From the NCBI GenBank assembly GCA_017454215.1, contig JAFTDL010000352.1, forward strand, positions 1 to 45,789: a stretch of 45,789 nucleotides of DNA. Direction: 5' to 3'. The stretch is from Lentisphaeria bacterium. GTDB lineage: Bacteria; Verrucomicrobiota; Lentisphaeria; Victivallales; Victivallaceae. Under the pieces are notes generated by a model. It saw only the letters and a program-made list of their open reading frames with translations, ran no database searches and was not told the DNA's origin. The position numbers and the translations under genes are program-made. The first letter of the stretch is position 1. Every line of letters starts with the position of its first letter. Below are positions 5,110-37,146 of the stretch, piece after piece.

Positions 5110-5154
5110 TTTTCCGTCCGCCTCCGAACCCGGACACCGCGTCCCTGAGTATGT

Positions 5155-5196: not shown

Positions 5197-5266
5197 TTTT
5201 TCGCCGAAACGCCGGGTGTTTTGAGGATGGAAGATATGGAGCCGTTTCAACGGGATTCCGTAAATA

Positions 5267-6256: not shown

Positions 6257-6273
6257 TTTAGTAAAAGTCAACT

Positions 6274-8326: not shown

Positions 8327-8396
8327 AGTATTGCGCAAGGGCAAATACATTCAGAACAACCGGATCGAGAAACATGAACAGAAGGGGGATGTGTCG

Positions 8397-9284: not shown

Positions 9285-9357
9285 TCTTCCGGAGTCCGCT
9301 TTTCCGCCGGCCGCAACACCGCGGATGCCCAAATCTTTTCGATCGGAGAAACATAAA

Positions 9358-18171: not shown

Positions 18172-18987
18172 GTGAGAAAAAAGGAACTCCTGACCGAACT
18201 GGAGAAGCTGGGCATGCGCCCCGGCCGCGGTCTGGGACAGAATTTTCTGATCGACGGAAATCTGCTTGACTGGATCGTCCGCCGCGCTGCCCCGGTCCGC
18301 GGCGAGGAGATCCTCGAAGTCGGACCCGGTTTCGGTGCTCTCACCGGCAGACTTCTCGAGACCGGCGCCCGGGTCACCGCCGTCGAATTCGATCACCGGC
18401 TCGCCGATTACCTCCGCGAGAAATACAGGGACCCCCGGCTGCGCCTGGTCGAAGCCGACGCCTGCAAGGTGGATTACGCCTCCCTCTTTCCCGAAGGGAC
18501 CGCCTTCCGCGCCGTCGCCAATCTGCCCTATGCCATAAGTTCGGTGTTCATCGCCCGCATGCTCGAGATCCCCCGCGGCCCCGGATTCATGCTCTTCATG
18601 CTCCAGCGCGAAATGGGCGAGCGTCTCGCCGCCGTTCCCGGCTCGAAGGAGTACGGTTCGCTCTCGGTGCGCGCCTCCCTCGATCACGAGGTGCGCATCG
18701 AGAAGATCGTGCCTGCGGCGGTGTTCTATCCGGAGCCGGGAGTCGAATCGGCCCTCGTCTCGCTGACCCGCGTCCGCACACGGCCGCCGGAGGAGTTGCG
18801 CCGCATCGCCGGGCTCACCAAACTCGTGTTCTCCCGGCGCCGCAAGCAGATGGGCAAAGTCCTCGCCGCGAGTTACGGCAGGGAGCGGGTGGAAAAGGCC
18901 TTTGCCGCCGCCGGGCTCGCGTGGGAGATCCGCCCCGACCGCGTCGCCCCCGAAGGATTCGCCGCCCTTGCGGGAGCCCTGGCATGA
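18172..18987 (+). CDS. rsmA: 16S rRNA (adenine1518/1519-N6)-dimethyltransferase
   Basis: GTG start. Motifs: LGQNFL, SAM-binding EVGPGFGALT, catalytic NLPY. Confidence 0.9.
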   Translation: MRKKELLTELEKLGMRPGRGLGQNFLIDGNLLDWIVRRAAPVRGEEILEVGPGFGALTGRLLETGARVTAVEFDHRLADYLREKYRDPRLRLVEADACKVDYASLFPEGTAFRAVANLPYAISSVFIARMLEIPRGPGFMLFMLQREMGERLAAVPGSKEYGSLSVRASLDHEVRIEKIVPAAVFYPEPGVESALVSLTRVRTRPPEELRRIAGLTKLVFSRRRKQMGKVLAASYGRERVEKAFAAAGLAWEIRPDRVAPEGFAALAGALA

Positions 18988-19679
18988 AGAACCTCAGGAC
19001 CAACGCCCTCCGTCTGCTCTCCGCAGCCGGGATCGCCTGCGAGGAACGCTTCTACGACGTTTCCGACGGCCGCATCGACGCCCTCGCCATCGCCGAAAAA
19101 CTCCGCGAATCCCCCGATCAGGTCTTCAAAACTCTCGTCACCTGTTCCAACAGGGGGGAGCATTTCGTTTTCGTCGTCCCCGCCGCGGCGGAGCTGGACC
19201 TCAAAAAAGCCGCGGCGGCGGCCGGGACAAAAAGCATCGGAATGATCCCGCAGAAGGCCCTTCTGCCCCTGACCGGATACGTTCACGGCGGCTGCTCTCC
19301 CGTGGGCATGAAAAAGTTTTTTCCCACCTTCATCGACGAAACGGCCCGGCTTTTCGACTACATCTGCGTCAGCGCCGGAGCCGTCGGCGCCAACATGGCC
19401 GTCGATCCCGACGCCCTCTGCCGCTTCCTCCCCGCTTCCTACGCCGACCTCGCCGTTTTCCGGTATGCTTTGTTCCCGGCGATACGGGAGCGGTCCGTTA
19501 CCCGTCTGCGCGATACGGGCCGGGCCTTTCACCGGCCCGTGCGGGGAACAGAGCCGAAAAAATATATTTTTTCTTCGACAATGGGAAATATGCGCCTTGA
19601 ATTTCGCTGTTTCCTCCGTATATTATATTCAGTATTGTCACAATGCGAACGGTCAACGTATTTCAACATCAAATTTTGA
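18984..19679 (+). CDS. ybaK: Cys-tRNA(Pro)/Cys-tRNA(Cys) deacylase YbaK-like, with a roughly 73-aa C-terminal extension
   Basis: ATG 18984 overlaps the rsmA stop (ATGA). YbaK-family segments: QVFKTLV, FVFVVPAAAELDLKKAA, TGYVHGGCSPVGMKK, YICVSAG. Family-like sequence ends near residue 158 (about nt 19458). The frame stays open to 19679. Confidence 0.8.
   Translation: MKNLRTNALRLLSAAGIACEERFYDVSDGRIDALAIAEKLRESPDQVFKTLVTCSNRGEHFVFVVPAAAELDLKKAAAAAGTKSIGMIPQKALLPLTGYVHGGCSPVGMKKFFPTFIDETARLFDYICVSAGAVGANMAVDPDALCRFLPASYADLAVFRYALFPAIRERSVTRLRDTGRAFHRPVRGTEPKKYIFSSTMGNMRLEFRCFLRILYSVLSQCERSTYFNIKF
19597..19624 (+). promoter_or_regulatory. Sigma70-like promoter upstream of the LysM/ATPase operon
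   Basis: TTGAAT (19597-19602), 16-nt spacer, TATATT (19619-19624), in an AT-rich patch. It lies inside the ybaK 3-prime extension. Confidence 0.4.
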
Positions 19680-19698: not shown

Positions 19699-20802
19699 AT
19701 GAAAAAAAGCGGTGTTTTTCTGGCGTTTGCCGGTCTGGCGGTCCTGGCGGGATGCCGAAGCGAGGTGATGGATGATCGCAAGTATGCGCCTCTCAAAGAC
19801 GAAGCGGATGTGTCCCAGACACGCCGGATGGATGATATGAGTTCTCAGCAGGGCACGCAGTCCGTTCCCCAGCCGGGACCGGATGTTTCCCCGGCACCGG
19901 CACCGGCGGCGGCTCCCGCCGCGGCGACTGAGGCCGATCCCGTTCCGGCCCGGACTCAGGCGCCGGCGAGACCGGCTTTCGCACCGATGGAAAAGAGAGA
20001 TTATCCCGTGGGACTTGCCTCCGACGGCCGGGGCGCTTCCCGCAGGGGTTCCGCGGTCAGAGGCGGTGAAAAGGGCACTTACGTGGTCAAGGTCGGCGAC
20101 AATCCCGGCAAGATCGCGCGCCGCTTCAACATCTCCGTCAAGGCCCTCCTCGACGCCAACAACATGACCGAAAAGGACGCCAAAAAGCTTTATGTGGGCC
20201 GCAAGCTCGTCATTCCCGCCGGAGGAAAAGCCGCGCGGAGTTCCGAGTCCCGCGGCGGCAAAGCCGGTAAGAAAGGCAAAGCCGAAACCTCCGCCACGTC
20301 CGCCAAAGGCGGCGTCTACGTGGTCCAGCCCGGAGATTTTCCGGAGCGCATCGCCCGCCGCAACAAGGTGAAGCTGTCCGATCTGCTCAGGGCGAACGAC
20401 CTGACGGTCGAATCCAGCCGCAAGCTCAGGGTCGGTCAGAAGCTGGTGATCCCCGGCGCGGGAAGCACGGCGGTCGCCGCGGCCAAGCCCAAGGCGAAGA
20501 AGTCCGCCGCCGCGGCTGCGGCTCCTGCCGAAACTGCGCCCGCCGCGCCGGCGGACGGCGTGAAAACGGCGGACAAGCTTGCCGACGACCTCGAAAATAA
20601 CATGCCCGCGGCCAAGCCCGCCGCCGACGAAGCCAAAAACGAAACGGATCTTCTGGAGGTCCCCGAGGATACCACCCTTAAAGCTCTCGCGGCCAAATAC
20701 AACACCACCGAGAGCAGACTGCGCAGTCTCAACGATAATTTCGCCGGAGACACGGTGCCGAAAGGGACCATCTTCTTCGTTCCTGCCCAACTGAAAAAGT
20801 AA
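19699..20802 (+). CDS. Lipoprotein with three LysM peptidoglycan-binding domains
   Basis: ORF 19465..20802 trimmed to ATG 19699 (MKKSGVFLAFAGLAVLAGC, lipobox LAGC). LysM repeats: YVVKVGDNPGKIARRFNISVKALLDANN...GRKLVIP, YVVQPGDFPERIARRNKVKLSDLLRANDL...GQKLVIP, and LEVPEDTTLKALAAKYNTTESRLRSLND...GTIFFVP. They are separated by Ala/Pro/Lys-rich linkers. Confidence 0.85.
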   Translation: MKKSGVFLAFAGLAVLAGCRSEVMDDRKYAPLKDEADVSQTRRMDDMSSQQGTQSVPQPGPDVSPAPAPAAAPAAATEADPVPARTQAPARPAFAPMEKRDYPVGLASDGRGASRRGSAVRGGEKGTYVVKVGDNPGKIARRFNISVKALLDANNMTEKDAKKLYVGRKLVIPAGGKAARSSESRGGKAGKKGKAETSATSAKGGVYVVQPGDFPERIARRNKVKLSDLLRANDLTVESSRKLRVGQKLVIPGAGSTAVAAAKPKAKKSAAAAAAPAETAPAAPADGVKTADKLADDLENNMPAAKPAADEAKNETDLLEVPEDTTLKALAAKYNTTESRLRSLNDNFAGDTVPKGTIFFVPAQLKK

Positions 20803-20823
20803 GACGGCCGAGGGGAGAGCGCC

Positions 20824-22308
20824 TTGGAGTACAATCCCGTCACACTCATTCTTCTGCTGGCATGGCTTTTGTGCGGCATCCGCGTGCTGGACAAAGTCAA
20901 CGCGTCTCCTGCGAAATGGCGGAGGAAAAAAGAGGATGACGGGAAGCACGGCATCGAGTGGCTGATCCTCTTTTTCGGCCCCGTCTTTCTGCTCGTCACG
21001 GCCGGGAAAGAATTCTGGGAGACCCGTCTGCAGAATGTGTTCGTGCGGGTGAAACGCCGGGCCAGATACGGCGGTATCACGATCCTCGACTCCCGCGGCA
21101 GTCCGCTGTACGGAGACGACTGCGACAACCCCGCCGTCGACGCCTTCAAGGATATCTTTCTGGAAGCCGCGAAGAGAGGCGCCAGCGACGTTTTCTTCGA
21201 TCCGGCGCCGGAAGGCGGCACCGCGCTGCGTTTCCGCATCGACGGAATTCTCGTTGCGCAGGAACCCCTCGTCTCCGGTCTCGGTGAAAATGTCATCAGC
21301 GCCGTCAAGGTCGCCGCGGGAATGAACATCGCCGAAAAACGTCGCCCCCAGGACGGCGCGTTTTCGGCGATGATCTCCGGCAGACCTGTGTCGTTCCGCG
21401 TCGCCTCCGCAGGAGCCGCCGGCGGAGAGAAACTCACCGTTCGTCTGCTGGGCGCCGGGTCCGCCCCGCGGACACTTGACGAGATCGGTTTCAGCGACGA
21501 TCAGCTCCGGCTGCTGAAGCGCTCCGTTTCTCTCTCGTCGGGAATGATCTTGATATGCGGCGCCACGGGCAGCGGAAAGACCACCACGCTGTACGGGCTG
21601 ATCGAAAATATCGACTTTTCGCTCAAAAACGTCATCTCCATCGAAGATCCGGTGGAGCGCGTCATTCCCGGGGTGAGCCAGATGGAGGTCAATGCCGCCG
21701 CGGGGATCACCTTTGCCGGTCTTCTGCGCAACGCCCTGCGCCAGAATCCCGACGTCATCTGCCTCGGCGAGATACGCGACGAGGAGACTGCGCAGATCGC
21801 CGTTCACGCGGCGCAAACCGGACACCTGATCGTCTCGACCATTCACGGAAACGATGCCGTGGACACCTTCGACCGCCTGACCGGCCTCGGCGTTCCCCTG
21901 CGCAGTCTGGCCGCCACGGTCAGGATCATCGTCAATCAGCGCATGGCCCGCAGACTGTGCAGAAAATGCCGGGCACCCCTGCCGGAACTTCCCGAAAAAT
22001 GGCGCGCCATCTTCGCCGAAAACAAAATCGATCCCTCCGGCGTCTGCCGGGCCGTCGGCTGTCCCGAGTGCGGCGGCACGGGTTTTCAGGGCCGCGCAGC
22101 CTGTTTCGAAATGCTCGTCGTCGACAGCGAACTCAGGGAAGAACTGGAACAGGAAAATGTTTCGCTGTCGAAGATCAGACAGTTCGCGCAGGCGAGGGGC
22201 GCATCCGGCAGTTTGCCGATCCACGGCGCCCGTCTGGCCGCCGAAGGCATCACCTCGCTGGACGAGATCGACCGGATAACCCTTTCTCTCGACGGAGACA
22301 CAATATGA
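20824..22308 (+). CDS. GspE/PilB-type secretion ATPase with an N-terminal two-helix membrane anchor instead of the usual N1 domain
   Basis: TTG start with AGGGGAGAG 4-5 nt upstream. Predicted TM helices VTLILLLAWLLCGIRVL and WLILFFGPVFLLVTAG. Walker A GATGSGKTT (21559-21585), Asp box ISIEDPVE, Walker B DVICLGEIRDEE, His box TGHLIVSTIHGND. Tetracysteine motif CRKC...CPEC (21958-22071), characteristic of assembly-type ATPases. Confidence 0.9.
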   Translation: MEYNPVTLILLLAWLLCGIRVLDKVNASPAKWRRKKEDDGKHGIEWLILFFGPVFLLVTAGKEFWETRLQNVFVRVKRRARYGGITILDSRGSPLYGDDCDNPAVDAFKDIFLEAAKRGASDVFFDPAPEGGTALRFRIDGILVAQEPLVSGLGENVISAVKVAAGMNIAEKRRPQDGAFSAMISGRPVSFRVASAGAAGGEKLTVRLLGAGSAPRTLDEIGFSDDQLRLLKRSVSLSSGMILICGATGSGKTTTLYGLIENIDFSLKNVISIEDPVERVIPGVSQMEVNAAAGITFAGLLRNALRQNPDVICLGEIRDEETAQIAVHAAQTGHLIVSTIHGNDAVDTFDRLTGLGVPLRSLAATVRIIVNQRMARRLCRKCRAPLPELPEKWRAIFAENKIDPSGVCRAVGCPECGGTGFQGRAACFEMLVVDSELREELEQENVSLSKIRQFAQARGASGSLPIHGARLAAEGITSLDEIDRITLSLDGDTI

Positions 22309-22901
22309 CAGGACTTCTCGTTTTCATGGGCATTCCCCTGCTTTTCGCTCTCATGGCCCTGCAGTCGCCGTTTTTTCAGAACTGGCGTTTCTTCGTCGCT
22401 CTGTCGGCCTCGGTCTATTTCGCGCTGTGGACAGGATCCCTGCACCGGGCGGTCCTGCCGCTGCTGACGGGGGAGTTTTCCCCCTGGGCCCCGGTCATCG
22501 CCATCGGCGGCGCGGCGTTTCTGTGCTGCTCGGTTCTGCTTAAGATCGCTTCGGATCTCTCCTCCCACGGCGGCGGCGGATATCATCTGCCGGGCAAAAA
22601 AAATCTGCTGGTCCCCGTTACGGGATTTCTCTCGGGCTACGTTGTCTCGGGTCTGGCCGCATATCTGCTCTGCATCTCCCCCCTGCACGAAACCGTCGCG
22701 CGGGACAAGGCCTTTGCCGACCGGGCCGTGGACCGGGTGCTGGTGTTCACCCGCGTCATCGACCGGATGACTTTTCAGCGTATTCCGGCATCTTCCCGCA
22801 GAAGCTGCCTGATGGCGCGGATCAAGACGCCGCCCCCCGCGGCGTCCGCGTCCGAAAATTCTTCCGCCGCAGAAAAAACAACCGAAAATAAAGGAAAATG
22901 A
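22305..22901 (+). CDS. Hypothetical 4-TM inner-membrane protein (CvpA-like topology, family unverified)
   Basis: Last 198 codons of ORF 21555..22901. ATG 22305 overlaps the upstream stop (ATGA). Four hydrophobic helices: LLVFMGIPLLFALMAL, FFVALSASVYFALWTG, VIAIGGAAFLCCSVLLKIA, VTGFLSGYVVSGLAAYLLCI. A hydrophilic C-terminal tail follows. Confidence 0.6.
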   Translation: MTGLLVFMGIPLLFALMALQSPFFQNWRFFVALSASVYFALWTGSLHRAVLPLLTGEFSPWAPVIAIGGAAFLCCSVLLKIASDLSSHGGGGYHLPGKKNLLVPVTGFLSGYVVSGLAAYLLCISPLHETVARDKAFADRAVDRVLVFTRVIDRMTFQRIPASSRRSCLMARIKTPPPAASASENSSAAEKTTENKGK

Positions 22902-22904
22902 CCC

Positions 22905-25094
22905 ATGACCATCGGAGAACTTCTGGTTTACGCCTCCACCAGCGGGGCATCCGATCTTTTCATCACTTCGGGCAAGGCCCCCTCTTTCCGGATCAACGGC
23001 GAACTGACCGTGAGCGGGGAACAGCCCGCGGCGGCCGGAGACATCGACGATTTCCGCCGCAGCGTCATCGCCGGGGAAGACGAGGCGCGTTATCAGCAGA
23101 CGGGGAGCGCGGAATCGGCCTTTTCTCTCTCGACGGGCGAAAGGTTCCGGGTGAACTTCTTCCTGACCTCGGGCGGACCCGGTTTCGCCGCCCGCCCGCT
23201 TCCCTCCGGGGGCGATCTTTACATCGAATCTCTCGGTCTGCCTCAGGTGCTGGGAGAGATCTGTGCGCAGAAACACGGTCTTGTCATCGTTGCAGGCACC
23301 AGCCGGTGCGGCAAATCGACCACGCTCGGCGCGCTGATCAACCAGATCAACATGACGGAAAACCGCCACATCATCACGCTGGAAAACCCCGTTGAATTTC
23401 TCTTTCCGGACCAGACGGGCGTCGTTACCCAGCGGGCCGTGGCCGGAGGAAATTTTGCCGAAGCCATCCGCAGCGCCCGGCATGAAAGTGCCGACGTCAT
23501 CGCCGTCGGCGATCTGCCCGACCGGGATTCCGTGCGGGCCGCCGTCAAAGCCGCCCTCAACGGCCAGCTGGTCATCGCCGTCATGGTTTCTCCCGACGCC
23601 GTTTCGGCGATAACGAAACTCATCAGGATCTTCCCCGAAGAGGAGCGGACGCAGGCCGCCTCCGACCTCGGACGTGTGCTCGTTGCGGTCATGGCCCAGC
23701 GCCTTGTCCCCCGTCAGGACGGCGCGGGACTGGTCGCCGCAGTGGAATTGCTCCGCTGCACCGACGCGGTCAGGAAACTCGTCGAAGAACAGGATTTCGC
23801 CGCGATCCGGGAAACGCTGAGCCGTGCCGGCGGCAACGGAACGGTCAGTTTCAACCGGGCCCTCTTCTATCTGATCCGCGACGGTTACCTCGACGCCGCC
23901 CGCGCCGCGGAGTTCAGCGACACGCCCGACGAACTCGAACTGCTGGTCAAAGGAATGGATTCACAGACCAACGAAAAACAGTACGGCACCCCCGACGACG
24001 CCGCCGAAGGAGACGTGGTGGACCTGCCGAAACTTCTGCGTTCGGCCATCAAGCTCGGGGCATCCGATCTTCACATTTCGGTCAACGCCCACCCCATGAT
24101 GCGCGTCCACGGCGAACTGCGTTCGCTGGGATTGCCGAAACTCAGGCCGCAGGACACCAGGCGTCTCCTCTTCGGCATGCTCACGCCCCAGCAGAAGATC
24201 GCCTTCGAAACGAGCAAGGAACTCGACCTGGCCCTCACCGTCGAAGGCAAACCCGATGAAAACGGCGAGAGGGAGGTGAGCCGTTTCCGCGTCAACGCCT
24301 ACTACCAGCGGGGCTACGTGGGGATCGTCGCCCGCGTCATCACGACGAACATTCCCTCTCCCGAATCGCTGAATCTGCCGGAGCCGATCGTCAATCTCTG
24401 CGAGAAAAAGCAGGGGCTCATTCTCGTTACCGGTCCCACGGGAAGCGGCAAATCAACCACGCTGGCCAGTTTGATCGACCGCATCAACAGCACCCGGGCC
24501 GAACACATCATCACCATCGAGGATCCCATCGAGTACGTGCACAGGAACAAGAAGAGCCTGATCCAGCAGCGGGAACTCAACGCCGACACCATGAGTTTCT
24601 CAAGGGCGCTCAAATCCGCCCTGCGTCAGGATCCGGACGTGATCCTCGTGGGTGAAATGCGCGACCCCGAAACCATATCCGCCGCCCTCACCGCCGCGGA
24701 AACCGGCCACCTGGTCATGGCCACGCTGCACACCAACAGCGCCGCCCAGACCATCGACCGCATCATCGACACCTTCCCCTCGGAGCAGCAGAACCAGATC
24801 AGGCTCCAGCTTTCAAGCTGTGTCATAGGCATCATTTCTCAGCGGCTCCTGATGCGGGCCGACACCGACGGACGGGTGGCTGCCTTCGAGATCCTCATCG
24901 GCACCCCGCCCGTTCAGGCGCTGATCCGCGACGGCAAGACCAGTCAGCTCACCTCGGTCATGGAGACCGGTTTCAAGGACGGCATGATCACCATGCGCCG
25001 CTCCCTTGAGGAACTCCTCGCGCAGGGCCTCATTTACGAAGAGGATGCCAAGGCGCTCTCGCTCGACGCCGTCGAAGTCCAGTCTTTTGAATAA
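22905..25094 (+). CDS. Tandem PilT/PilU-type ATPase fusion (degenerate N-terminal copy plus canonical C-terminal copy), 729 aa
   Basis: One continuous ORF.
- N-half (aa 1-350): Walker A AGTSRCGKST is retained. The Asp box is TLENPVEF. Walker B is DVIAVGDLPD (Glu to Asp, Arg to Pro). The His box is NGQLVIAVMVS (both His lost).
- A roughly 20-aa acidic linker follows.
- C-half (aa 372-729): canonical GPTGSGKST (24432-24458), TIEDPIEY, DVILVGEMRDPET, TGHLVMATLHTN, and a PilT-like VQALIRDGK. Confidence 0.9.
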   Translation: MTIGELLVYASTSGASDLFITSGKAPSFRINGELTVSGEQPAAAGDIDDFRRSVIAGEDEARYQQTGSAESAFSLSTGERFRVNFFLTSGGPGFAARPLPSGGDLYIESLGLPQVLGEICAQKHGLVIVAGTSRCGKSTTLGALINQINMTENRHIITLENPVEFLFPDQTGVVTQRAVAGGNFAEAIRSARHESADVIAVGDLPDRDSVRAAVKAALNGQLVIAVMVSPDAVSAITKLIRIFPEEERTQAASDLGRVLVAVMAQRLVPRQDGAGLVAAVELLRCTDAVRKLVEEQDFAAIRETLSRAGGNGTVSFNRALFYLIRDGYLDAARAAEFSDTPDELELLVKGMDSQTNEKQYGTPDDAAEGDVVDLPKLLRSAIKLGASDLHISVNAHPMMRVHGELRSLGLPKLRPQDTRRLLFGMLTPQQKIAFETSKELDLALTVEGKPDENGEREVSRFRVNAYYQRGYVGIVARVITTNIPSPESLNLPEPIVNLCEKKQGLILVTGPTGSGKSTTLASLIDRINSTRAEHIITIEDPIEYVHRNKKSLIQQRELNADTMSFSRALKSALRQDPDVILVGEMRDPETISAALTAAETGHLVMATLHTNSAAQTIDRIIDTFPSEQQNQIRLQLSSCVIGIISQRLLMRADTDGRVAAFEILIGTPPVQALIRDGKTSQLTSVMETGFKDGMITMRRSLEELLAQGLIYEEDAKALSLDAVEVQSFE

Positions 25095-25108
25095 GGGGGA
25101 AAACAGTC

Positions 25109-25909
25109 ATGCGACAGAGAATGCTGCTTCTGCTGGCCGTCATCTTCGGCCTGCTGGCTTTCGTGCTGACCTATCAGCAGATCGAGGCGGAAAAACGGCG
25201 CATCGCGGGGGACTCCGAAACGGCGATCCTCATTCAGGTGACGCGCAACATGGTCGAGGGCGAGACGCTGACCGAAAAGGACGTGGCCCGCTACACGGTC
25301 AAACGCCGCCGCGAAGCCATGGCCAACAGCCGCGAGATCCCCTGGTCGCAGCTGTACAGGGTGGTCAACCACAAACTCGACACCTCCATCAACAGGGGAC
25401 AGATCCTCCAGACCACCGACATCAAGTTCGGTTCCCGGCGCAACGGTTTCAGCGGCATCGTTCAGGACGGCTGGCGGGCGGTCTCCATTCCCGTCGATCC
25501 CGTTTCGTCGGTCAACAACCTCATCCAGCCCAACGACAACGTGGACGTCATCGGGACCTTCCGTTTCCCCGACGTGCGGGGCGACAGCGCCCTCGACACG
25601 GTCACGCTGACCATCCTGCAGGACGTGAAAGTCCTTGCCGTGGGCAGCCGCTGGCAGTCCGCCGCGGCCGCCGAACAGAACGCCCCGCGGACCTACGGCA
25701 CCGTCACGCTGCAGCTGATGCCCGACGAGGTGGAAATGCTCATTTTCGCCTCGCAGAAGGGCAAGATAACCCTCTCTCTGCGCAACTTCGAGGATACCCG
25801 GATCGCCCGCGACATCGAGAAGCGCAGCGTCAACTTCAAACTGCTCGAAAAAGAGATACCCGGCTACAACAAACGCCGCGAAGACCGCCGCAACAGGAGG
25901 ATGAAGTGA
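25109..25909 (+). CDS. cpaB: Flp/Tad pilus assembly protein CpaB (RcpC)-like
   Basis: N-terminal TM helix MLLLLAVIFGLLAFVL. SAF-like domain (VTRNMVEGETLTEKDV). RcpC-like C-terminus (DVIGTFRF..., VLQDVKVLAVG, TLQLMPDEVEMLIFASQKGKITLSLR). AAGGGGGA Shine-Dalgarno. Confidence 0.85.
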   Translation: MRQRMLLLLAVIFGLLAFVLTYQQIEAEKRRIAGDSETAILIQVTRNMVEGETLTEKDVARYTVKRRREAMANSREIPWSQLYRVVNHKLDTSINRGQILQTTDIKFGSRRNGFSGIVQDGWRAVSIPVDPVSSVNNLIQPNDNVDVIGTFRFPDVRGDSALDTVTLTILQDVKVLAVGSRWQSAAAAEQNAPRTYGTVTLQLMPDEVEMLIFASQKGKITLSLRNFEDTRIARDIEKRSVNFKLLEKEIPGYNKRREDRRNRRMK

Positions 25910-27624
25910 CCGAGATCATCATCCGCCGGACCGGGAAAAATCCCGTGCGGGCCAGCCTTCCCGACGGAGCCTATCTCATCGGCGCCGGGAAAAACTGCCA
26001 CATCCCTCTCGATTCGCCGGATGTTTCCGGCCGCCACGCCCAGCTGATCGTGTCGGACAACGCCATCACCGTCATGGACCTGGGCAGCAGCAACGGCACC
26101 TATGTCAACGGCAGCGCGGAACCGCTTTTCGCCAATCAGATGACGCCCCTCGCTCCGGGAAGCGTCCTCCGGCTGGGCAAAAACGTGGAGATCACCATAG
26201 GGCGCGCACCCGCCGCGGACGCGTCCGCACGGGAGTCCCGGCCGCAAAAGGACGCGCCGCGTCCGCCGGAGACGGACGATTTTCTTGCCCCCGACAGGGG
26301 CGAGATCCCGGTCCTCACCGTCTCCGGCGTGCCGCCGCGGCTGCGGCCCCTCGTTCAGGAGATCAAGCGCCAGGCTCACAAGGAACTGCTCAAGCGCATG
26401 AATCTCAAGAAGATGGCTCTGTCGGGAATTTCCGAAAGCGAATTGGCCGATCAGGCCAAGCGCATGATCCGCGAGATCCTCTCGGTGCTCAACGTCAAAC
26501 TGCCAGAAGGACTTTCCGTCGAAGTCATCGAAAAGGAGCTCATCCAGGAAGCTATCGGCCTCGGGCCGCTGGAGTACCTCATTGCCCGGGACGATATCAG
26601 CGAGATCATGGTCAACGGTCCCAATCAGGTCTATGTGGAGCACAAGGGCATGCTCTACCGCACCGACGCCGCCTTTGCCGACGACAATCAGGTGCTGGCC
26701 TCGATCGAGCGCATCGTGGCCCCTCTGGGCCGGCGCATCGACGAAAGTTCCCCCATGGTGGACGCCCGTCTGGCCGACGGCAGCCGCGTCAACGCCATCA
26801 TTCCGCCGCTGTCGCTGGTGGGGCCGACGATCACCATCCGCAAATTCACCCGAACGCCCCTGCAGGCCCGCGATCTGGTCAATTTCGGCTCCATCAGTCC
26901 CGAGATGGTGAAGTTTCTCGCCGTCTGCGTGGCGGTACGGAAGAACATCATCATCTCGGGCGGAACGGGCTCCGGCAAAACGACACTGCTCAATGTGCTG
27001 AGCAGTTTTCTGCCCAACCGCGAGCGCATCGTCACCATCGAGGACGCCGCGGAACTTCAGCTCCATCAGGAGCATATCGTGCGTCTCGAAGCCCGTCCGC
27101 CCAACATCGAAGGCCGGGGAGAGGTGACGATCCGCGACCTCGTCCGGAACTCTCTGCGCATGCGGCCGGACCGCATCGTCGTCGGCGAGTGCCGCGGCGG
27201 CGAAGCGCTGGACATGCTTCAGGCCATGAACACCGGTCACGACGGCAGTCTGACCACGATCCACGCCAACTCGCCCCGGGATGCCCTGGCCCGTCTGGAG
27301 ACTCTCGTTCTCATGTCCGGATTCGATCTGCCTCTGCGCGCCATCCGCGAACAGGTGGCTTCGGCCATCAACATCATCGTGCAGATCACCCGCGAGCGCG
27401 ACGGCAGCCGCAAGGTGGTCAACATCAGCGAGATCGTCAAGATGGAGGGCGACATCATCACCATGCAGGACATCTTCGTCTTCCGTCAGACCGGCTGGGA
27501 CGCCCGGAACCGCATCACCGGCGTCTTCGAGCCCACGGGGAGCATTCCCAGCTTCATGGAGGACATCCGCCGCGCCAAGCTCGATCTGGACGTCTCCCTC
27601 TTCTCCCCCCGAAAACAGTCCTGA
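25906..27624 (+). CDS. cpaF: FHA-domain-fused CpaF/TadA-type ATPase
   Basis: GTG 25906 overlaps the cpaB stop (GTGA), with CAGGAGG upstream. It is the last 572 codons of ORF 25006..27624. FHA motifs: [40 protein letters not shown] Pro/Asp-rich linker follows. CpaF core: ISEIMVNG, Walker [10 protein letters not shown] (26959-26982), [36 protein letters not shown]. Confidence 0.9.
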
Positions 27625-27648
27625 CGGACCGCGGAACGCTCCGTTTTT
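27624..27648 (+). terminator. Candidate intrinsic terminator of the ATPase operon
   Basis: ACGGA-cc-GCG-gaa-CGC-TCCGT followed by TTTT, immediately after the cpaF stop. A second hairpin ACGGCG...CGCCGT+TTT follows at 27658-27679. Confidence 0.4.
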
Positions 27649-27678
27649 CTGACAGGGACGGCGGTTCCCGCGCCGTTT

Positions 27679-30430: not shown

Positions 30431-30576
30431 CCCCCAGTCTTTTTCCAAAACGCTCTGTTCCCGATAAAACCGGCGGTTCCGGGGGAGGGAAAGGGGGTTT
30501 GCCGAGGCCGGCGTTTCGGCTTTTCCCGGGGAAAGAGGATCTCCCTTTCCCCGGACCCGCCGGGCTTTATCTCGGG
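30431..30576. repeat. Long imperfect palindromic intergenic repeat, copy A
   Basis: The left arm CCCGATAAAACCGGCGGTTCCGGGGGAGGGAAAGGG (30460-30496) pairs with the right arm CCCTTTCCCCGGACCCGCCGGGCTTTATCTCGGG (30543-30576). The core is CCGAGGCCGGCGTTTCGGC. The right half aligns directly with 41763-41836. The left flank plus left arm aligns with the reverse complement of 41800-41870. Confidence 0.6.
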
Positions 30577-33245
30577 CTCATGACGTCCCGGGGACCGGGA
30601 GCGGTGCAGACTTCGAGCACGAGGGAGTGGTCTCCCGCGGCGAGTTCGACTTCCGTGCGGTACGGGGGGGCGAGCCGTGTCCCGGTCTCCCGGCCGTCGA
30701 TCACGATCCTCACGGACTCGTCGGAGAAGTCGAATTCGAGCGCATACCGGCCGGTTTCGGGCGCGTGGAGTCTGCCCGTGTACCGGGCCATTCCGGAAAA
30801 CGTGCCGTAACCGAGAGACGCGTAATCGCCCGTGCCCCCGACCCGGAACGTTTCCGGCGCCGGGGAGAGCACGACGCCGTCGCGGTCCGGCGGGAACGCG
30901 GTCTTGAAACGTCCCCGCAGGTACGGGGCGTTCTCGAACAATGCGCCGCTGAAAGTGACGGTGTTGACCCCTTTTTTCAGCAGGGCGCTTATGTTGCACT
31001 CCCGTTCGCGGCAGTCGCGGAAGCGGGCCTTTTCGTATCCGGTCAGCGCAGCGCCGTTGATTTCGAAACTTCCCCGGGCCAGAGCCGACTCCTCGGTGGT
31101 GAAGAAAACGGGCTCGAGGCTGTCTTCGACGGTGAACTCGGCGGAGAATTTTCCCGCGGGAAAATTCTCCATGTCGAAGGAGGTTTTTTTCAGCAGATCG
31201 ATCCGCGTCCCCTCCGGGGTCCGCCACAGGTTGAGCGGGACGCAGTTGAGGCCGAAGGCAAGGTCCCACTCGGAAACGGTCAGAGCGGGAATTTTTTCTT
31301 TCGGGCGCAGTTCGTCGGCGAACCCGGCTTCTCCGGGCGCGATCTCAAGGGGACTTCCGTCCAGTGTGCCGCGGAACGTCTCCGGACCGCGGTTGAAGAG
31401 AAAGAGCCGTTCCCGGCCCGCCTTGCGGATCCGTCTTGAAAGGATGTTTCCGCATCCTCTGCCGTCAAGCGGAAGTCCGGGGATCCGTTCGATGCACGCC
31501 GCCGCGGAGCAGGGGGCGGCGAAACGCCATTTTTCCCTCGTTTTCGCGGAAAGTTCCGGAATGATCTCGGGCGTGACGCCGATGATGAAGACTTTTCCTC
31601 CGCGGGCGGCATAACGTTCCAGCCAGTCGGCGGTCGTCCTCCCGATCACGGGGGTGTGGGCCAGCACGAAGTACGGGCGGAGCACGGCAAATGCCGCCGG
31701 ATCCTGTTCGAGAAGCGTTTCTTCGTCGATGAGCTCGAAATCCCGCTGATGCGAAAGCAGTTCCTCCGCGGTCCGGTGCAGTTTTTCGTCGAAGGGCGGC
31801 TCCCCGGGCAGACGGCTCTGCAGGGCGCTTGAGGGATAGAGCATTTCCAAGCCGCACACGTGCTCTCCCGAGAGTTCCTCACAGCGGCGTTTCAGGTGAT
31901 CCAGAAAACTTTTCATGTGGGGCCACTGGGAGTGCTGGTAAAAGAGCGACGGCGGCGCTTCGTCGCGGCGTTCGCCGTCGAGGGTGTAATAGAGGCCGTG
32001 GATATTGAACCAGGTGACGCCCATGACCAGATGATAATTGAGCATGAATTCGAGGTCTCTCAGGCTGACGGCGTCGCCTCCGACGGCGAAGGCGTCGGCT
32101 CCGGAAGCCCGTTTGCCGAAGAGCCGGGCCGCCGAGGTGACGGTCTTTATGCCGATATGGTGAGCCATTGATCCCGGCCGTCCGACGCCCGCGCCCAGGG
32201 GATCGCAGCAGGGAATGTCGAAATGCCTGAAGCAGCGCAGTTCATCGGGCCAGAACAGTCCCGACCACGAGAGATACTCCGAGCGGGTAAGGTGGCCTGT
32301 GCTTGCGATGTTTCTGGCGTTGAGCCACTTTCTGACGGGTTCGAGGTAGTTCCGGCACAGCAGGCGGCGGAGCGTCCGGCGGTAGTCGTTTCTCACTTTG
32401 ACGGAACCGGCGTCCACGTCCAGCGCCAGATGGGGCAGCAGGGGGAGCAGATCATAGCCGTGATCGCGCCGGAACTCTTCCGGCAGGCGGCGGGTCCACG
32501 GATAAACACCGGCGGGGGACGGTTCGTCCATGAAGGAGGCCGCGCAGTGCCGCATCCTGCCGCCGAAGTGCCGTTCATAGCGGGCGTGGACCAGGTCCAG
32601 CAGCACGCGGGTGGTTTCCGGGGCGAGCAGGTCGCTGCTGTGCCGTCCGGGGCCGTTGTAAATCTGTTCCGCGCAGACGATCCTGCAGTCCCTGTCGGGC
32701 GTCCAGGCGAGGGCGAAGCGCGGCGTATCCATGGAGCGCCGCCGGTGGGGCAGGGGCAGTTGTGCGTAAGGAGAGTAGGCCGTGGTCTGGATCCTCGCCG
32801 GGTTCCACTTGCTTCTCAATGTTCCGCAGTGGCCGGAAATGTCGGTGACTTCCCCGTTTCCGGTGACGGCGTAACAGCCGGCGAAGGCGCCGTCGACGGA
32901 AAAATATTCCAGCACGGGAACGTCTTTTTTCGCCTCGATCACGCGGAAATTCAGCTGTGAGGAGGCCAGTTCCGGAAAGGCGTTGCAGATCCTGTTGCCC
33001 GCGTCGCCCGAGGGATAGTTGTCCTCGTCCCAGATGGCGAATTTGACGCCGTGCCGGATCAGTTCGTCCGCCGCCGCGTCGAGCGCGTCGAACCAGTCCT
33101 GCGAAAGATAAGGCGTCTTCAGTCCCGCCCGGGCGTGCAGAAAGATCACTTCGTACCCCGCCCGGCACAGCTCCCCGATCTGTTCGCGGATCTCCTCCTC
33201 ACGCAGATCCGTGTTCAAAAAATACTGTCCCGCAAGATGTTCCAT
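30567..33245 (-). CDS. Cytoplasmic glycoside-hydrolase-like protein (N-terminal TIM-barrel-like region, C-terminal galactose-binding-like domain; 892 aa)
   Basis: No signal peptide (MEHLAGQYFLNTDL). VIFLHARAGLKTPYLSQDWF..FAIWDEDNYPSGDAG resembles GH106-type or related hydrolases from memory. The C-terminus GTFSGMARYTGRLHAPETGRYALEFD...VRIVIDGRETG is like GH2-type sugar-binding beta-sandwiches. The family is unverified. Confidence 0.7.
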   Translation of the reverse strand: MEHLAGQYFLNTDLREEEIREQIGELCRAGYEVIFLHARAGLKTPYLSQDWFDALDAAADELIRHGVKFAIWDEDNYPSGDAGNRICNAFPELASSQLNFRVIEAKKDVPVLEYFSVDGAFAGCYAVTGNGEVTDISGHCGTLRSKWNPARIQTTAYSPYAQLPLPHRRRSMDTPRFALAWTPDRDCRIVCAEQIYNGPGRHSSDLLAPETTRVLLDLVHARYERHFGGRMRHCAASFMDEPSPAGVYPWTRRLPEEFRRDHGYDLLPLLPHLALDVDAGSVKVRNDYRRTLRRLLCRNYLEPVRKWLNARNIASTGHLTRSEYLSWSGLFWPDELRCFRHFDIPCCDPLGAGVGRPGSMAHHIGIKTVTSAARLFGKRASGADAFAVGGDAVSLRDLEFMLNYHLVMGVTWFNIHGLYYTLDGERRDEAPPSLFYQHSQWPHMKSFLDHLKRRCEELSGEHVCGLEMLYPSSALQSRLPGEPPFDEKLHRTAEELLSHQRDFELIDEETLLEQDPAAFAVLRPYFVLAHTPVIGRTTADWLERYAARGGKVFIIGVTPEIIPELSAKTREKWRFAAPCSAAACIERIPGLPLDGRGCGNILSRRIRKAGRERLFLFNRGPETFRGTLDGSPLEIAPGEAGFADELRPKEKIPALTVSEWDLAFGLNCVPLNLWRTPEGTRIDLLKKTSFDMENFPAGKFSAEFTVEDSLEPVFFTTEESALARGSFEINGAALTGYEKARFRDCRERECNISALLKKGVNTVTFSGALFENAPYLRGRFKTAFPPDRDGVVLSPAPETFRVGGTGDYASLGYGTFSGMARYTGRLHAPETGRYALEFDFSDESVRIVIDGRETGTRLAPPYRTEVELAAGDHSLVLEVCTAPGPRDVMSPR

Positions 33246-33282
33246 GTTTACATCCGGTCCCCGGTGTTGTTTCCGCGTCCCG

Positions 33283-36279
33283 TCAGCGGCCGCCGGGGCG
33301 CTGGGGAACGAATTCCAGACAGCCCTTGTATTTCCACTTGGGAAAATCGCGGTGGGGGCCGATAACTTTGCACGGCGCGAAATCGTTTGGTTTCCCGGCG
33401 GAGGAAAGGGTCCCGGCTCCGGAAGCCATGAGGATGTCTCCGCCGTTTCCGAAAACCGTCCACACCAGCCCGGTTTTCCGGTGTCCGCGATTGACGCATT
33501 TCATGGTGATCTCGTTTCTTCCGGGCCGGAGCCATTGCGGGATGCGGTATTCGAAAAGTTTTCGCTGCTCGTCGCCGCGGTCGATCTTATTTCCGTTGAC
33601 GTAAAGGGTCCATGCGCTGTTGGTGTTGAAGAGGATTTTCGCGTCGCCGGGCACGGTCTTCACGTCGAATGTTCCGCGGAAAAAGGTCTCTCGGGCCGCC
33701 CTGACCGGCATGATCCAGTCCGCAGGAAGCGTGATGTTCCGGTTTTCGCAGTAAGACGGTCCGCCGTCCTGTTCGGAGAATTTCACGCGGGGGATCGGGG
33801 TCCGTTCGGTCGAGAGCAGAACGACGCCGTATGCCTCCAGCCGTATGGGTCCGCCGCGATACTCTTTGCCGGAACGCAGCTCATGGAGTTTTTCCGGAAG
33901 CGGGCAGGTGAATTCGGCAACGGCGGGATGGTCGAGTTCGTTGACGGCGGCGAACAGGACCCGTTCCCCGTTCTTCCACGCCTTGGCCGCGATGAATTCG
34001 GGGAATTTGCCGGAGAGTTTCAGCGGAGTGCTCCCGGCCAGGATCTTTCCCGCGGCGGCAAGTTCGCGGTTGACCCATGCGAAATCCGCCCACCAGTCGC
34101 CGTATATCTCGTCGCAGGGACCGTAACGGTGGGGATATCTTCCCTCGCTGTGCCAGTCGATGCCGGTCGCGCCGCGCAGAATGGCATCCCACGCCATGAA
34201 GCGCAGTTCCCGGTAATCGGGACGCGGCAGGATATCCAGCCGGTTGACGGCGGTGTTTTCTCCCCAGCCCCAGGCCTGAAGTATCATCCATGCGGGCTTT
34301 CTGTTCCATCCGGCGGCCCTGGCCAAATCCGTGTAATCTCCGACGCAGCTGAGTCTCCGGTTGGCGAGGCGGTTGTGCGCGACGCCCGGCGCGGGAACGG
34401 GATAGATGTCGACGCTCAAGACGTCGAACGTCGTGGAGAAACGCCGGACATAGGGCAGAAACTCCCTCTTCGGCGCACTGGTCTTGCCGTCGATGCGCGG
34501 CGCGTGATTTTCCCAGAGGATATAATCCGGCAATTCGCGGAACGCGACTCCGTTGTTGCGCACCGCCCGCTCCGGCGGGACATTCCGGACCACCGCCTCG
34601 TCGGACAGCAGACCGATGAACTTCGGAAAGGCGTCATACCGCACCTTCATCCGCCGCAGGAACTCGGCCAGTTCTTCGGGACTGCCCCGCCAATCCGCCT
34701 GATTCACCCAGTCCATCACGGCCAGATCATGTTTTTTTGCCTGCGCAAGAGCATAATCCGCCCCGCGGCGGTTCTGCAGATCCTGAAGAAAGCAGACGGT
34801 ATTGATCCCCGAAGCCGCCGCCACGCGGAAGAAATCGCTGCTGCTGGTGGGGATATGGTTCATCATGATGGGAAAAAACGGTTTCCCGTTGAGCAGAAGC
34901 CAGCCGTTGCGGTCGAAACTTGCGCCGCGGGTCTGGGGACCGCGGATCCGGAAAAACTCCGTGTCGCCCGGCATGCCTTCCCCCGTGAAAGCAAGTTCGT
35001 ATGCTCCTGCCGCCAGAGGGGGAAGCTGCAGTTCCCGGCGGGCAGGAACGCCGGGAACCAGCCCGGTCACCGCGATTTTCTGCAGAACGGGTCCCCCGAT
35101 CGCCTTCAGTTCGGCGACGAGGACCGGCGCGGCGGGCAGAATTTCAAGAGACAGTTTTTTCGGCACTTCGGGAAGAAAATAAGTGTTCCTGACCGGAAAA
35201 TCCGTCACCCGGGCATAGCAGGCCTGCGTTCGGTACCAGCCGTCGTCCCGCTTTTCCGGCGGCGCATCCGAACAGGAAGCGCTCGAGAATTTCACCGTAT
35301 CGCCGGACACGCAGCGTACGGAAAAACTCACCCGATCCGGTTTGCCGTCGGGAACGGTGAACTGAAAATGACGCGTCTCCCAGCCGACATAGACCGTCTG
35401 CGCCGGAGACTTCTGAAACGCCAGCACCTTTCCGTCGCGCTCGAAGCGCGCCCCGACCGCAAACCGTGTGGAGGGATCGCTGTTGCTGCTCACCGTCATC
35501 GTGAACCGTACATCCGTCCCCTTTCCGGCATTTTCGAGAGCCGCGGAAACCGCCGCTTCCGCTCCGGGGCGCGGCAGTATGACGGCGGACTCGTTCCCGT
35601 CGTATCTTGCGCCGTCGGTGAACCGCCAGCGCCCGGGATCCGCCGCCCCGCCCAGAAGATCGGCCGGTGTCGGAAGGACCGCCCATGCGTACCGGCAGAA
35701 TTTCGTCGTCGTCCACGCAAGATCCGTCTTTTCTCCGGGCAGAACCGGAGCTTTGCCGCTTCTGATGTTCACCGGTCCCAAATAGGCGCTGCCGATCAGG
35801 ACCCGCCCCTTCCCACGGAGCCAGACATTGACAGTCGGCGCCCTGAAGGGTTTATCGGGCAGTCGGAACCGCACCCTGACACGAAAACTGCGGCGCACCG
35901 GATACTCCCTCAAATCCGCCAGCGCACAGAATTTGTCGGGGATCGACTCGAAATAGATCAGCAGACGGGTACGGGGTGAAACCTCCTCCGCCTTGAGAAT
36001 GACCGAATACTCCATTTCGAGACCGCTTCCGTACAGAGACGCCAGTCCTTTGTTCAGACCGCGTTGAACGATCCTGAAACCGCGGCCGTCCGGCATTTCA
36101 CCGAGCTCCGCCGCCGCAGGACCGGAGAAACCGGGAGACACGGGACGGGCCAGTTCCCAGCCGATGACTTTCCCGCCCGACACCGCGGAAAAATCCGGAT
36201 TGCTCAAAACGCAGTGATCCCCCCGCAGGACCGAAAACGAAGCCAGCAGCAGAACCGTCAGCAGCAGAGTTTTGCCCAT
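33283..36279 (-). CDS. Secreted multidomain glycoside-hydrolase-like protein (CBM-like N-terminus, TIM-barrel-like core, C-terminal galactose-binding-like domain)
   Basis: ORF 33283..36294. I prefer ATG 36279 (MGKTLLLTVLLLASFSVLRG, signal peptide) because GGGAAG lies 8-13 nt upstream. LSNPDFSAVSGGKVIGWEL is CBM4_9-like. NGKPFFPIMMNHIP...GINTVCF...LLSDEAVV is paralogous to the core of the 9358-12687 protein. The C-terminus has FFRGTFDV...AWTLYVNGNKI. Confidence 0.75.
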   Translation of the reverse strand: MGKTLLLTVLLLASFSVLRGDHCVLSNPDFSAVSGGKVIGWELARPVSPGFSGPAAAELGEMPDGRGFRIVQRGLNKGLASLYGSGLEMEYSVILKAEEVSPRTRLLIYFESIPDKFCALADLREYPVRRSFRVRVRFRLPDKPFRAPTVNVWLRGKGRVLIGSAYLGPVNIRSGKAPVLPGEKTDLAWTTTKFCRYAWAVLPTPADLLGGAADPGRWRFTDGARYDGNESAVILPRPGAEAAVSAALENAGKGTDVRFTMTVSSNSDPSTRFAVGARFERDGKVLAFQKSPAQTVYVGWETRHFQFTVPDGKPDRVSFSVRCVSGDTVKFSSASCSDAPPEKRDDGWYRTQACYARVTDFPVRNTYFLPEVPKKLSLEILPAAPVLVAELKAIGGPVLQKIAVTGLVPGVPARRELQLPPLAAGAYELAFTGEGMPGDTEFFRIRGPQTRGASFDRNGWLLLNGKPFFPIMMNHIPTSSSDFFRVAAASGINTVCFLQDLQNRRGADYALAQAKKHDLAVMDWVNQADWRGSPEELAEFLRRMKVRYDAFPKFIGLLSDEAVVRNVPPERAVRNNGVAFRELPDYILWENHAPRIDGKTSAPKREFLPYVRRFSTTFDVLSVDIYPVPAPGVAHNRLANRRLSCVGDYTDLARAAGWNRKPAWMILQAWGWGENTAVNRLDILPRPDYRELRFMAWDAILRGATGIDWHSEGRYPHRYGPCDEIYGDWWADFAWVNRELAAAGKILAGSTPLKLSGKFPEFIAAKAWKNGERVLFAAVNELDHPAVAEFTCPLPEKLHELRSGKEYRGGPIRLEAYGVVLLSTERTPIPRVKFSEQDGGPSYCENRNITLPADWIMPVRAARETFFRGTFDVKTVPGDAKILFNTNSAWTLYVNGNKIDRGDEQRKLFEYRIPQWLRPGRNEITMKCVNRGHRKTGLVWTVFGNGGDILMASGAGTLSSAGKPNDFAPCKVIGPHRDFPKWKYKGCLEFVPQRPGGR

Positions 36280-36303
36280 TTTCCGACTTCCCATGCCGGC
36301 AAT

Positions 36304-37146
36304 TTACTTGAGAGCCGTCCCGTTGAACGGCGCATAGTTGCGCAGGATCACCTGCGGGTGACCCTCCTGCACATCCGTGCGGATGGCATTGGTCTGCAGT
36401 CTGGCGGGTGCGGCGCCGACCCATGCCTGCTGCTGCGGTATCGCGACCGTCTCCATGTGACCGTCGCACATGACCATGTTGTAGCTTCCGGAGTGCCGGA
36501 AGTTGACGAGACCGGAGTCGATCCCTGCGGAATTACCGTCCATGACCCACGCCATCTTGGAGTAGGACGCCGTGCCGCGTACGCCGCTGAGCTTGAACAT
36601 CCCCGCGACCCAGTCGCCGCTCCACTGCGGAGTCACCCCGGTCGTGCCGCCTCCGTCGCCCAGAGCCATATTCAGAAAGTAGGAGGTCCCGCCCCGGAAT
36701 CCCTGCGTCGTGGACGGACAGCGCGCAATGCCCGTGGGGACCGTCTTGCCGATCTTCACACCCTCGACATGGACCGTCATGTTGAGGTAACCCAACTTCC
36801 CGGGACGCGTCGTCGAACTCGTCGGATCATACGCGCTGCACAGAAGAACGGTCCAGTAGACTCCGTCCGTCTTGCTCATGACCTTGCTGTAGCCCGCCCC
36901 CCAGCCGCTGTAGTCGTTGGCATAGAACGTCAGTCCCTGCCCCGTCTGCCGGAGGTTGCCGACACAGGAAATGGCCCGCCCCCTCTCCCGCGCCTGCTGC
37001 AAAGCGGGCATCAGCATCGCGGCCAGAATGGCGATGATCGCTATCACGACCAGAAGTTCGATCAACGTGAAACGCGCATCCGTCCTGCCCTTGTCCGTCG
37101 CCCGAATGCTTTTTGCCCCGTCGCGAAAGGTGTCTCTTTTCATCAT
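36304..37146 (-). CDS. DUF1559/HX9DG-family pseudopilin-like protein
   Basis: [75 protein letters not shown]. The C-terminal [14 protein letters not shown] is an exact H-X9-DG. The AGGAGG Shine-Dalgarno favours the second ATG (37143). Confidence 0.85.

Follow-up and report, generated by a model that had tools for sequence, protein, structure and literature searches.

Three type IV filament-superfamily motors in one Lentisphaeria operon: a probable lineage-specific cluster of separately inherited modules

Does a compact operon that encodes three motor ATPases of three different clades specify one machine, or parts of several? The question is raised by a six-gene block in a 45,789-nucleotide stretch of DNA from a Lentisphaeria bacterium (contig JAFTDL010000352.1 of GenBank assembly GCA_017454215.1, positions 1 to 45,789), the whole of which is referred to here as the window. 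The block (19699-27624, + strand) consists of six co-directional open reading frames (ORFs) with high GC content at third codon positions, as in coding DNA. According to Pfam, it encodes one GspE/PilB-type, one PilT-type (as a tandem fusion) and one CpaF-type ATPase. The N-terminal module is non-standard in all three. The original prediction, made from the sequence alone, described an orphan three-motor operon. The compact operon is real; its reading as one new machine is upheld only in part by comparison with relatives, in most of which the modules are unlinked. On balance, we favor the interpretation that three motor modules of the type IV filament superfamily, each inherited separately, have clustered in a lineage-specific manner in one family-level group of Lentisphaeria, and that the resulting block is not a self-contained machine. 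The six genes and the basis of their assignments are as follows.

19699-20802, + strand: G1, LysM lipoprotein (ORF, Pfam)
20824-22308, + strand, TTG start: G2, membrane-anchored GspE/PilB-type ATPase (ORF, Pfam, structure alignments)
22305-22901, + strand: G3, putative divergent CvpA-family protein with four transmembrane (TM) helices (ORF, transitive family match)
22905-25094, + strand: G4, tandem PilT-PilT fusion (ORF, Pfam, NCBIfam)
25109-25909, + strand: G5, CpaB/RcpC with an N-terminal membrane anchor (ORF, Pfam, NCBIfam)
25906-27624, + strand, GTG start: G6, FHA-CpaF/TadA-type ATPase (ORF, Pfam, structure match)

The genes, their domains and all five junctions were confirmed by ORF analysis, Pfam and direct reading of the junctions, which measure +21, -4 (ATGA at 22305), +3, +14 and -4 (GTGA at 25906) nt; the gaps between modules are those of 3 nt (G3/G4) and 14 nt (G4/G5). 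The TTG start of G2 agrees with the N-termini of its homologs. Shine-Dalgarno-like purine runs are found 5' of the starts of G1, G2, G5 and G6, with GGGGAGAG ahead of the G2 start at 20824 and AGGAGG ahead of the G5/G6 overlap at 25906. Translation of G3 is predicted to be coupled to that of G2 through the ATGA overlap, and that of G6 to G5 through the GTGA overlap. G2, the C-terminal half of G4 and G6 all have intact catalytic motifs, such that all three motors, one from each of three ATPase clades, appear active.

Type IV filament machines are thought to need a polytopic platform protein of the GspF/PilC/TadB type to convert ATPase motion into pilin movement. The block had been described as devoid of platform, secretin, peptidase and pilin genes, and a Pfam scan of the larger ORFs of the window bore this out, with no T2SSF, secretin or A24 peptidase among them. 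The scanned ORFs also gave no match to PF00482 (T2SSF/TadB/TadC), no GspF, GspD or GspC/L/M, and no PilC or PilMNOPQ domains. Neither a TadV/CpaA peptidase gene nor a TadZ/CpaE gene was seen in the window, and no Flp-type motif is present in any of its six frames. Literature searches found no paper describing an operon of this composition, in line with the original prediction.

As a syntenic unit, the block is not conserved. All six genes occur together only in close relatives, as in L003 (numbers with the prefix L designate the fetched loci), where the tandem PilT is 75% identical and the flanks differ. Elsewhere in Lentisphaeria the block is split, with the following arrangements.

L007: LysM-GspE-G3-CpaB-FHA-CpaF, without PilT
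L012: GspE-G3-tandem PilT
L004: LysM-tandem PilT
L006 (Victivallales CCUG 44730), L008-L011 and L013: GspE-G3 alone
L002 and L005: tandem PilT alone
L090: CpaB-CpaF alone

Since relatives carry these partial combinations, the operon is a mosaic of three modules that occur in varying pairs: module A (G1-G3), module B (G4) and module C (G5-G6). As a local mosaic, the three-motor operon is less remarkable than at first sight.

Module A comprises the LysM lipoprotein, an anchored GspE/PilB-like ATPase and the CvpA-like four-TM protein. G2 contains a full-length T2SSE domain (333 bits, residues 102-484, Pfam). Its first 96 residues consist of two hydrophobic helices (approximately residues 4-22 and 43-61) and a linker, located where the N1 domain would be. 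Alignments to the PilF, GspE and PilB structures in the PDB (260-270 bits) begin only at residue ~97-100; therefore, G2 is interpreted as an N2 plus catalytic domain protein without N1/MshEN. G2 reaches about half of the NCBIfam equivalog cut-offs for both GspE (TIGR02533, 355 bits against 630) and PilB (TIGR02538, 346 bits against 676). The tetracysteine and all catalytic motifs are invariant across the G2 family (26-member alignment), and the N-terminal region of G2 is also kept in relatives. By its sequence, the tetracysteine corresponds to the Zn-binding motif typical of assembly ATPases. G2 thus resembles GspE, PilB and PilF in its N2 and catalytic domains, Walker A and B motifs, Asp and His boxes and tetracysteine, but differs from GspE/PilB in having two membrane helices in place of N1/MshEN and in being encoded always beside a CvpA-like protein and never beside GspF/PilC. 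Judged by the sub-threshold equivalog scores, the missing N1 and the lack of GspF/PilC alongside, module A would belong to neither the type II secretion systems (T2SS) nor the type IVa pili.

G1 has a signal peptide with a lipobox (LAGC) and three LysM domains (Pfam LysM 4.6e-31, three stretches) linked by Ala/Pro-rich stretches, with no other recognisable domain. Its orthologs are neighbors of GspE (L003, L007) or of the tandem PilT (L004). TsaP and FimV are LysM proteins of type IV pilus machines, and G1 is likewise encoded with motor genes; however, homology to these proteins is not detectable beyond LysM, and G1 differs in being a lipoprotein with three LysM domains.

G3, described originally as an anonymous four-TM protein, has four predicted TM helices and a cytoplasmic tail, and on its own matches nothing in Pfam or NCBIfam at E ≤ 0.01. 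It directly matches proteins of L006, L009 and L007 in phmmer (E 3e-16 to 6e-72), and its homologs were sought iteratively with jackhmmer over all ORFs of the fetched loci. Among the 28 members of the resulting family, 22 match PF02674 (Colicin_V/CvpA; best E 3.7e-11), several of them above the 29.3-bit cut-off. G3 is thus assigned transitively, through its homologs, as a putative divergent member of the CvpA family, the window protein itself being too divergent to match PF02674 directly. The family is narrow and fast-evolving, since phmmer with G3 gave only 29 matches among 1.84 billion representatives. CvpA proteins and the G3 family have in common four TM helices and a similar size. The cvpA gene adjoins purF in E. 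coli; the G3 family differs in its fixed position 3' of a GspE-like ATPase and in the C-terminal cadherin/Ig-like domains of its Planctomycetia members.

Other identities for G3 and its neighbors were also considered. A cryptic T2SSF platform was rejected by profile-profile comparison, with hhalign giving 1.1% probability for the G3 family against TadB/TadC. The ~380-residue proteins encoded 3' of planctomycete GspE genes, to which jackhmmer connected G3 and which were suspected to be GspF, contain CvpA and cadherin/Ig domains in Pfam. Nor is G3 homologous to the genes that precede the tandem PilT in Chondromyces and L002. An AlphaFold2 model of G3 from its single sequence (mean pLDDT 49.8) was usable only for helix positions.

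The genomic coupling of the anchored GspE-like ATPase to a CvpA-like protein is obligate in the readable loci. A CvpA-like gene lies just 3' of the GspE-like gene, mostly within ~20 nt, in L003-L014, L016-L027 and L030; the L015 sequence stops at the GspE stop codon, such that the downstream gene is unreadable there. These loci belong to Lentisphaeria and to Planctomycetota (Phycisphaerae, Sedimentisphaerales, Anaerohalosphaeraceae and metagenome-assembled genomes (MAGs) labelled Pirellulales). Longer CvpA-like genes follow a second planctomycete GspE group (L028, L029, L033, L034, L036 and the second pair of L020), and the L033 and L034 proteins carry C-terminal cadherin/Ig-like domains. Every CvpA-linked GspE with an available N-terminus has one to three, usually two, hydrophobic segments in the ~115 residues before N2, whereas in the same scan about 46 of 57 canonical GspE/PilB proteins have no hydrophobic N-terminal segment and the remainder have one, mostly weak. 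In a neighbor-joining (NJ) tree, the TM-bearing, CvpA-linked GspEs group in a single clade, which is divided into a Lentisphaeria and a Planctomycetota sub-branch, and the CvpA-linked GspEs of Planctomycetia form a second clade. No paper was found that links CvpA with GspE/PilB or describes anchored GspE-type ATPases.

PilT genes adjoin the GspE-CvpA pair in the window, L003 and L012. In Planctomycetota, the following triads of PilT, GspE and a CvpA-like protein of 378-497 residues are found; no match to them was made for the Planctopirus operon Plim_0410-0401.

L020:15308-19397: PilT-GspE-CvpA-like triad
L028:7834-12719: PilT-GspE-CvpA-like triad
L036:6996-11127: PilT-GspE-CvpA-like triad

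The families that recur around the pair, among 125 neighboring ORFs of 17 loci from the Planctomycetes-Verrucomicrobia-Chlamydiae (PVC) group, are thrS, pheS, infC, rplT and small FHA proteins; T2SSF, GspF, GspD and GspC/L/M are absent from them. The pair often lies beside the translation genes thrS, infC, rplT and pheS/pheT (flanks of L006-L027), a position that hints at constitutive expression. Small stand-alone FHA proteins (146-173 residues) are encoded directly upstream of the pair, on the same strand, in five Planctomycetota loci.

L017:9188-9631, same strand as the pair: small FHA protein
L020:8634-9155, same strand as the pair: small FHA protein
L025:9256-9711, same strand as the pair: small FHA protein
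L026:1674-2114, same strand as the pair: small FHA protein
L027:710-1180, same strand as the pair: small FHA protein

These features are consistent with a module in which a GspE/PilB-type hexamer would use its own N-terminal helices as an anchor in the inner membrane and would act on or through its CvpA-like partner. The latter may take the membrane-coupling role that the N1 domain plays with GspL, or that of GspF/PilC, and G1 may tether the assembly to peptidoglycan. The likely task of module A would be filament assembly from N_methyl/DUF1559 prepilin-like proteins, which are candidate substrates because their genes are many in these genomes. Additionally, the recurrence of PilT beside the GspE-CvpA pair points to a type IV filament that is extended and retracted in a cycle; to our knowledge, PilT acts on type IV filaments only. 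Because its members have their own helices, are always paired with CvpA and are never beside a platform gene, the anchored GspE clade is a candidate for an alternative way of coupling ATPase to membrane. In the strongest version of this idea, the anchored GspE-like ATPase and the CvpA-like protein would form an unrecognised minimal, PVC-specific motor, in which the CvpA-family protein replaces the GspF/PilC/TadB platform as membrane transducer and which powers the assembly and, together with PilT, the retraction of N_methyl/DUF1559 filaments. We put this forward tentatively and, as stated in full, rate it as rather unlikely. If true, it would be the first mechanistic role for CvpA-family proteins.

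Alternatively, module A may not be a filament motor. The GspE-like and CvpA-like proteins could be parts of an envelope or export device peculiar to the PVC group, with a role such as peptide/protein export or membrane homeostasis, as has been loosely suggested for CvpA; PilT and CpaF would then be their neighbors through shared regulation only. The pair is usually alone among thrS, infC, rplT and pheST, with no pilin, platform or secretin nearby; G2 is well under the GspE/PilB equivalog cut-offs and is without N1; and the CvpA family (Pfam PF02674) takes its name from colicin V production, not from a pilus function. However, retraction ATPases of the PilT type are repeatedly encoded next to the pair in two phyla, G2 retains the N2 and catalytic domains and the Zn-binding tetracysteine of assembly ATPases, and the genomes are rich in prepilin-like genes. 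We consider this explanation unlikely.

Module B consists of G4, a 729-residue protein with two PilT units in one chain (two T2SSE stretches, Pfam), which matches the PilT/PilU family TIGR01420 in two stretches with 727 bits (cut-off 319). The C-terminal unit is a canonical PilT with all motifs (339 bits to PilT structures). The N-terminal unit retains Walker A, but has Asp in place of the Walker B Glu and Asn in place of the Asp-box Asp, and both His-box histidines are gone (H to Q, H to V). G4 thus resembles PilT/PilU in its C-terminal unit, and differs in the fusion of two units and in the degenerate N-terminal one. In most of 115 full-length tandem-PilT relatives, both halves retain Walker A, the Asp box, the Walker B Glu and the His box. 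The predicted degeneracy of one PilT copy is therefore borne out by motif reading, as a putative loss of catalysis characteristic of the window's clade.

The tandem arrangement itself is not the local oddity that it was taken for, since the fusion family spans several phyla and is found in Lentisphaeria, Victivallaceae, Polyangiales (including Chondromyces crocatus) and an alphaproteobacterial MAG. It is annotated plainly as PilT everywhere, and no paper on it was found. On the myxobacterial chromosome of C. crocatus (CP012159), a lone tandem PilT with 44% identity is located at L001:10001-12259, with FHA/sigma-54 activator and Ser/Thr kinase genes ~3-5 kb 3' of it. In two other Lentisphaeria clades, a conserved protein of ~220-240 residues, which has two TM helices and is helical in its C-terminal part, is encoded directly 5' of the tandem PilT (L002:9328-9984 and L005:9283-9999; 34% identity, E 1e-44). 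Neither the window nor any other fetched locus encodes this protein, which may be a dedicated tandem PilT partner. G4 is most likely a retraction motor. Three chains would form a pseudo-hexamer in which three active sites alternate with three nucleotide-binding, inactive ones.

The nearest known relative of module C is the Tad/Flp pilus system. G5 matches PF16976 (RcpC/CpaB, 6.7e-28), has a TM helix at residues 5-23, and passes the CpaB equivalog TIGR03177 (139.7 bits, cut-off 71). G6 combines FHA (4.8e-16) and T2SSE (7.1e-64) domains in Pfam, and is a close CpaF homolog (433 bits to the Caulobacter CpaF structures 9e24 and 8rkd). It is far more conserved than G2 and G4: over 100 protein clusters of Lentisphaeria share at least 69% identity. 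RcpC/CpaB forms a periplasmic ring (PMC12307814), and CpaF alone powers both extension and retraction of the Tad pilus (PMC6920026). In three Lentisphaeria genomes, orthologs of CpaB-FHA-CpaF (69% identity) are followed without gaps by two T2SSF genes and by DUF192, FHA (456-478 residues) and PEGA (~440 residues) genes.

L089:9204-16621: seven-gene operon CpaB, FHA-CpaF, TadB, TadC, DUF192, FHA, PEGA
L171:9188-16730: the same seven-gene operon
L172:9078-16634: the same seven-gene operon

The flanks of L171 are unlike those of L089 and L172. The window pair is thus severed from the TadB/TadC genes into which the relatives' operon continues, and that operon differs from Tad/Flp systems in its conserved downstream partners DUF192, FHA (~460 residues) and PEGA. 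As in the window, a secretin, Flp pilin, TadV/CpaA peptidase and TadZ/CpaE were not seen within 10 kb of these three operons (Pfam-annotated flanks). The usual order in the 80 metagenomic CpaF loci among the matches listed is CpaB...CpaF-TadB-TadC, FHA-bearing versions included, and DUF192 often follows TadC in unrelated Tad loci among them; these matches of the G6 search are mostly generic CpaF loci of other phyla rather than close relatives. The claim of a CpaF motor without a platform thus does not stand. Since its orthologs continue into a canonical TadB/TadC pair, G6 is a motor detached from its platform rather than a platform-less one, and a motor that seems to be an orphan in a PVC genome can be a part split off from an ordinary operon.

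The fusion of FHA to a CpaF-type ATPase, the extra FHA proteins and the splitting of Tad genes between loci are reminiscent of the Kil system of Myxococcus, which has FHA-CpaF and split Tad clusters and, according to its authors, occurs only in Deltaproteobacteria (PMC8460266). CpaB-FHA-CpaF of the window would be the detached front end of the Lentisphaeria Tad-like operon, serving a separate Tad-like machine, and the FHA domain may put this motor under phospho-threonine signalling.

Could the six genes nevertheless specify a single, self-sufficient apparatus in which the three motors are integrated and no GspF/TadB-type platform is needed? The compact operon with its two 4-nt overlaps, the retention of the block in L003 despite different flanks, the adjoining of modules in several combinations in other Lentisphaeria and the lack of a platform gene in the window are compatible with such a machine. 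However, the modules are unlinked in most relatives; lone tandem PilT genes occur in Lentisphaeria and Polyangiales; and CpaB-FHA-CpaF orthologs normally continue into TadB/TadC. Moreover, the L089 operon and the GspE-G3 pair of L008 belong to the same assembly (GCA_964609825.1) and lie on different contigs, and therefore modules A and C are physically separate in that genome. An integrated machine is thus improbable, and less likely than a non-filament role of module A. Least likely of all, and in our view very doubtful, is an accident of rearrangement that brought together modules with no functional or regulatory relation: PVC genomes do scatter operons and the block is restricted to a narrow clade, but all three modules come from one ATPase superfamily, the gaps between them are just 3 and 14 nt, and different module pairs have been joined independently in L004, L007, L012 and the Planctomycetota triads.

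All three of these alternatives are weaker than clustering of separately inherited modules, against which several points nonetheless weigh. The tight coupling of all six genes, and the recurrent adjacency of modules A and C, A and B, and LysM with B, also fit physical cooperation of the motors. The NJ tree of the GspEs carries no support values. T2SSF was not seen within ~6.5 kb of any GspE-CvpA pair, among the families that recur in the 125 ORFs of 17 loci, and, with its partner machinery unseen nearby, the link of module A to pilins is conjecture; CvpA is also without an established biochemical function. Finally, the clustering interpretation presumes that TadB/TadC, GspF/PilC, a secretin, a peptidase and pilins are encoded elsewhere in this genome. 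Under the clustering interpretation, the three motors would be co-transcribed from one promoter probably for co-regulation. The original prediction offered two candidate functions for the block, a set of motors shared by the DUF1559 pseudopilins and a Tad-like apparatus that would be tethered to peptidoglycan and gated through FHA.

Expression signals were predicted to bracket the block, and candidate sites exist on both sides.

19597-19626, + strand: sigma-70-like promoter candidate (TTGAAT, 16-18 nt spacer, TATATT/TATTAT; 9 of 12 consensus positions)
27631-27652, + strand: weak terminator-like hairpin (5 bp stem and T-run, 7 nt past the G6 stop)

The promoter candidate sits in an AT-rich stretch 5' of G1. 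Neither type of site is enriched over shuffled sequence (three promoter-like sites observed against 1.3 expected; ten terminator-like sites in the region against 8.3), and the two candidates are therefore weak evidence for the limits of the operon. The flanking genes are unrelated to the block: upstream lie those for KsgA and a YbaK-like editing protein, and downstream those for a PHP protein and RecJ. The YbaK-like ORF (18921-19679) extends ~80 codons beyond its tRNA_edit domain, into the AT-rich stretch with the promoter candidate, and it is uncertain where the gene really ends. No RNA genes were detected in the window by Rfam or tRNA scans.

Elsewhere in the window, prepilin-like genes with an N_methyl motif (in 8298-12687 and 30567-37146, with DUF1559 at 36304-37146) lie beside giant genes for proteins resembling carbohydrate-binding modules and glycoside hydrolases (CBM/GH-like). 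These and a nearby regulator gene are located as follows.

8998-12687: giant CBM/GH-like gene
30567-33245: giant CBM/GH-like gene
33283-36294: giant CBM/GH-like gene
37318-38169: AraC-type regulator gene

L171 has similar cassettes, N_methyl with GH99 and GntR, and SBP_bac_10 with a cellulase. Positions 4500-6500 of the window have a low GC content (0.51 against about 0.61) and include a YhcG/DUF1016 PDDEXK nuclease gene at 5267-6256; this patch may be a recent insertion.

DUF1559 proteins form the largest paralog family of Planctopirus, with two essential members (PMC10632474), and Planctomycetes bear polysaccharide-binding fibres whose genetic basis is unknown (PMC5394234). Literature searches on DUF1559 and on Lentisphaerae T2SS found no description of the arrangements reported here. 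We know of no motors assigned to the DUF1559 repertoire, and of no mechanism for the CvpA family, widespread as it is. The most unusual part of the block is not the gathering of three motors but the GspE-CvpA pairing, which is kept across two phyla and is a testable lead. Prepilin-like proteins with DUF1559 number in the dozens in Lentisphaerota and Planctomycetota, and in the search for their motors the GspE-CvpA module offers a concrete genetic target.

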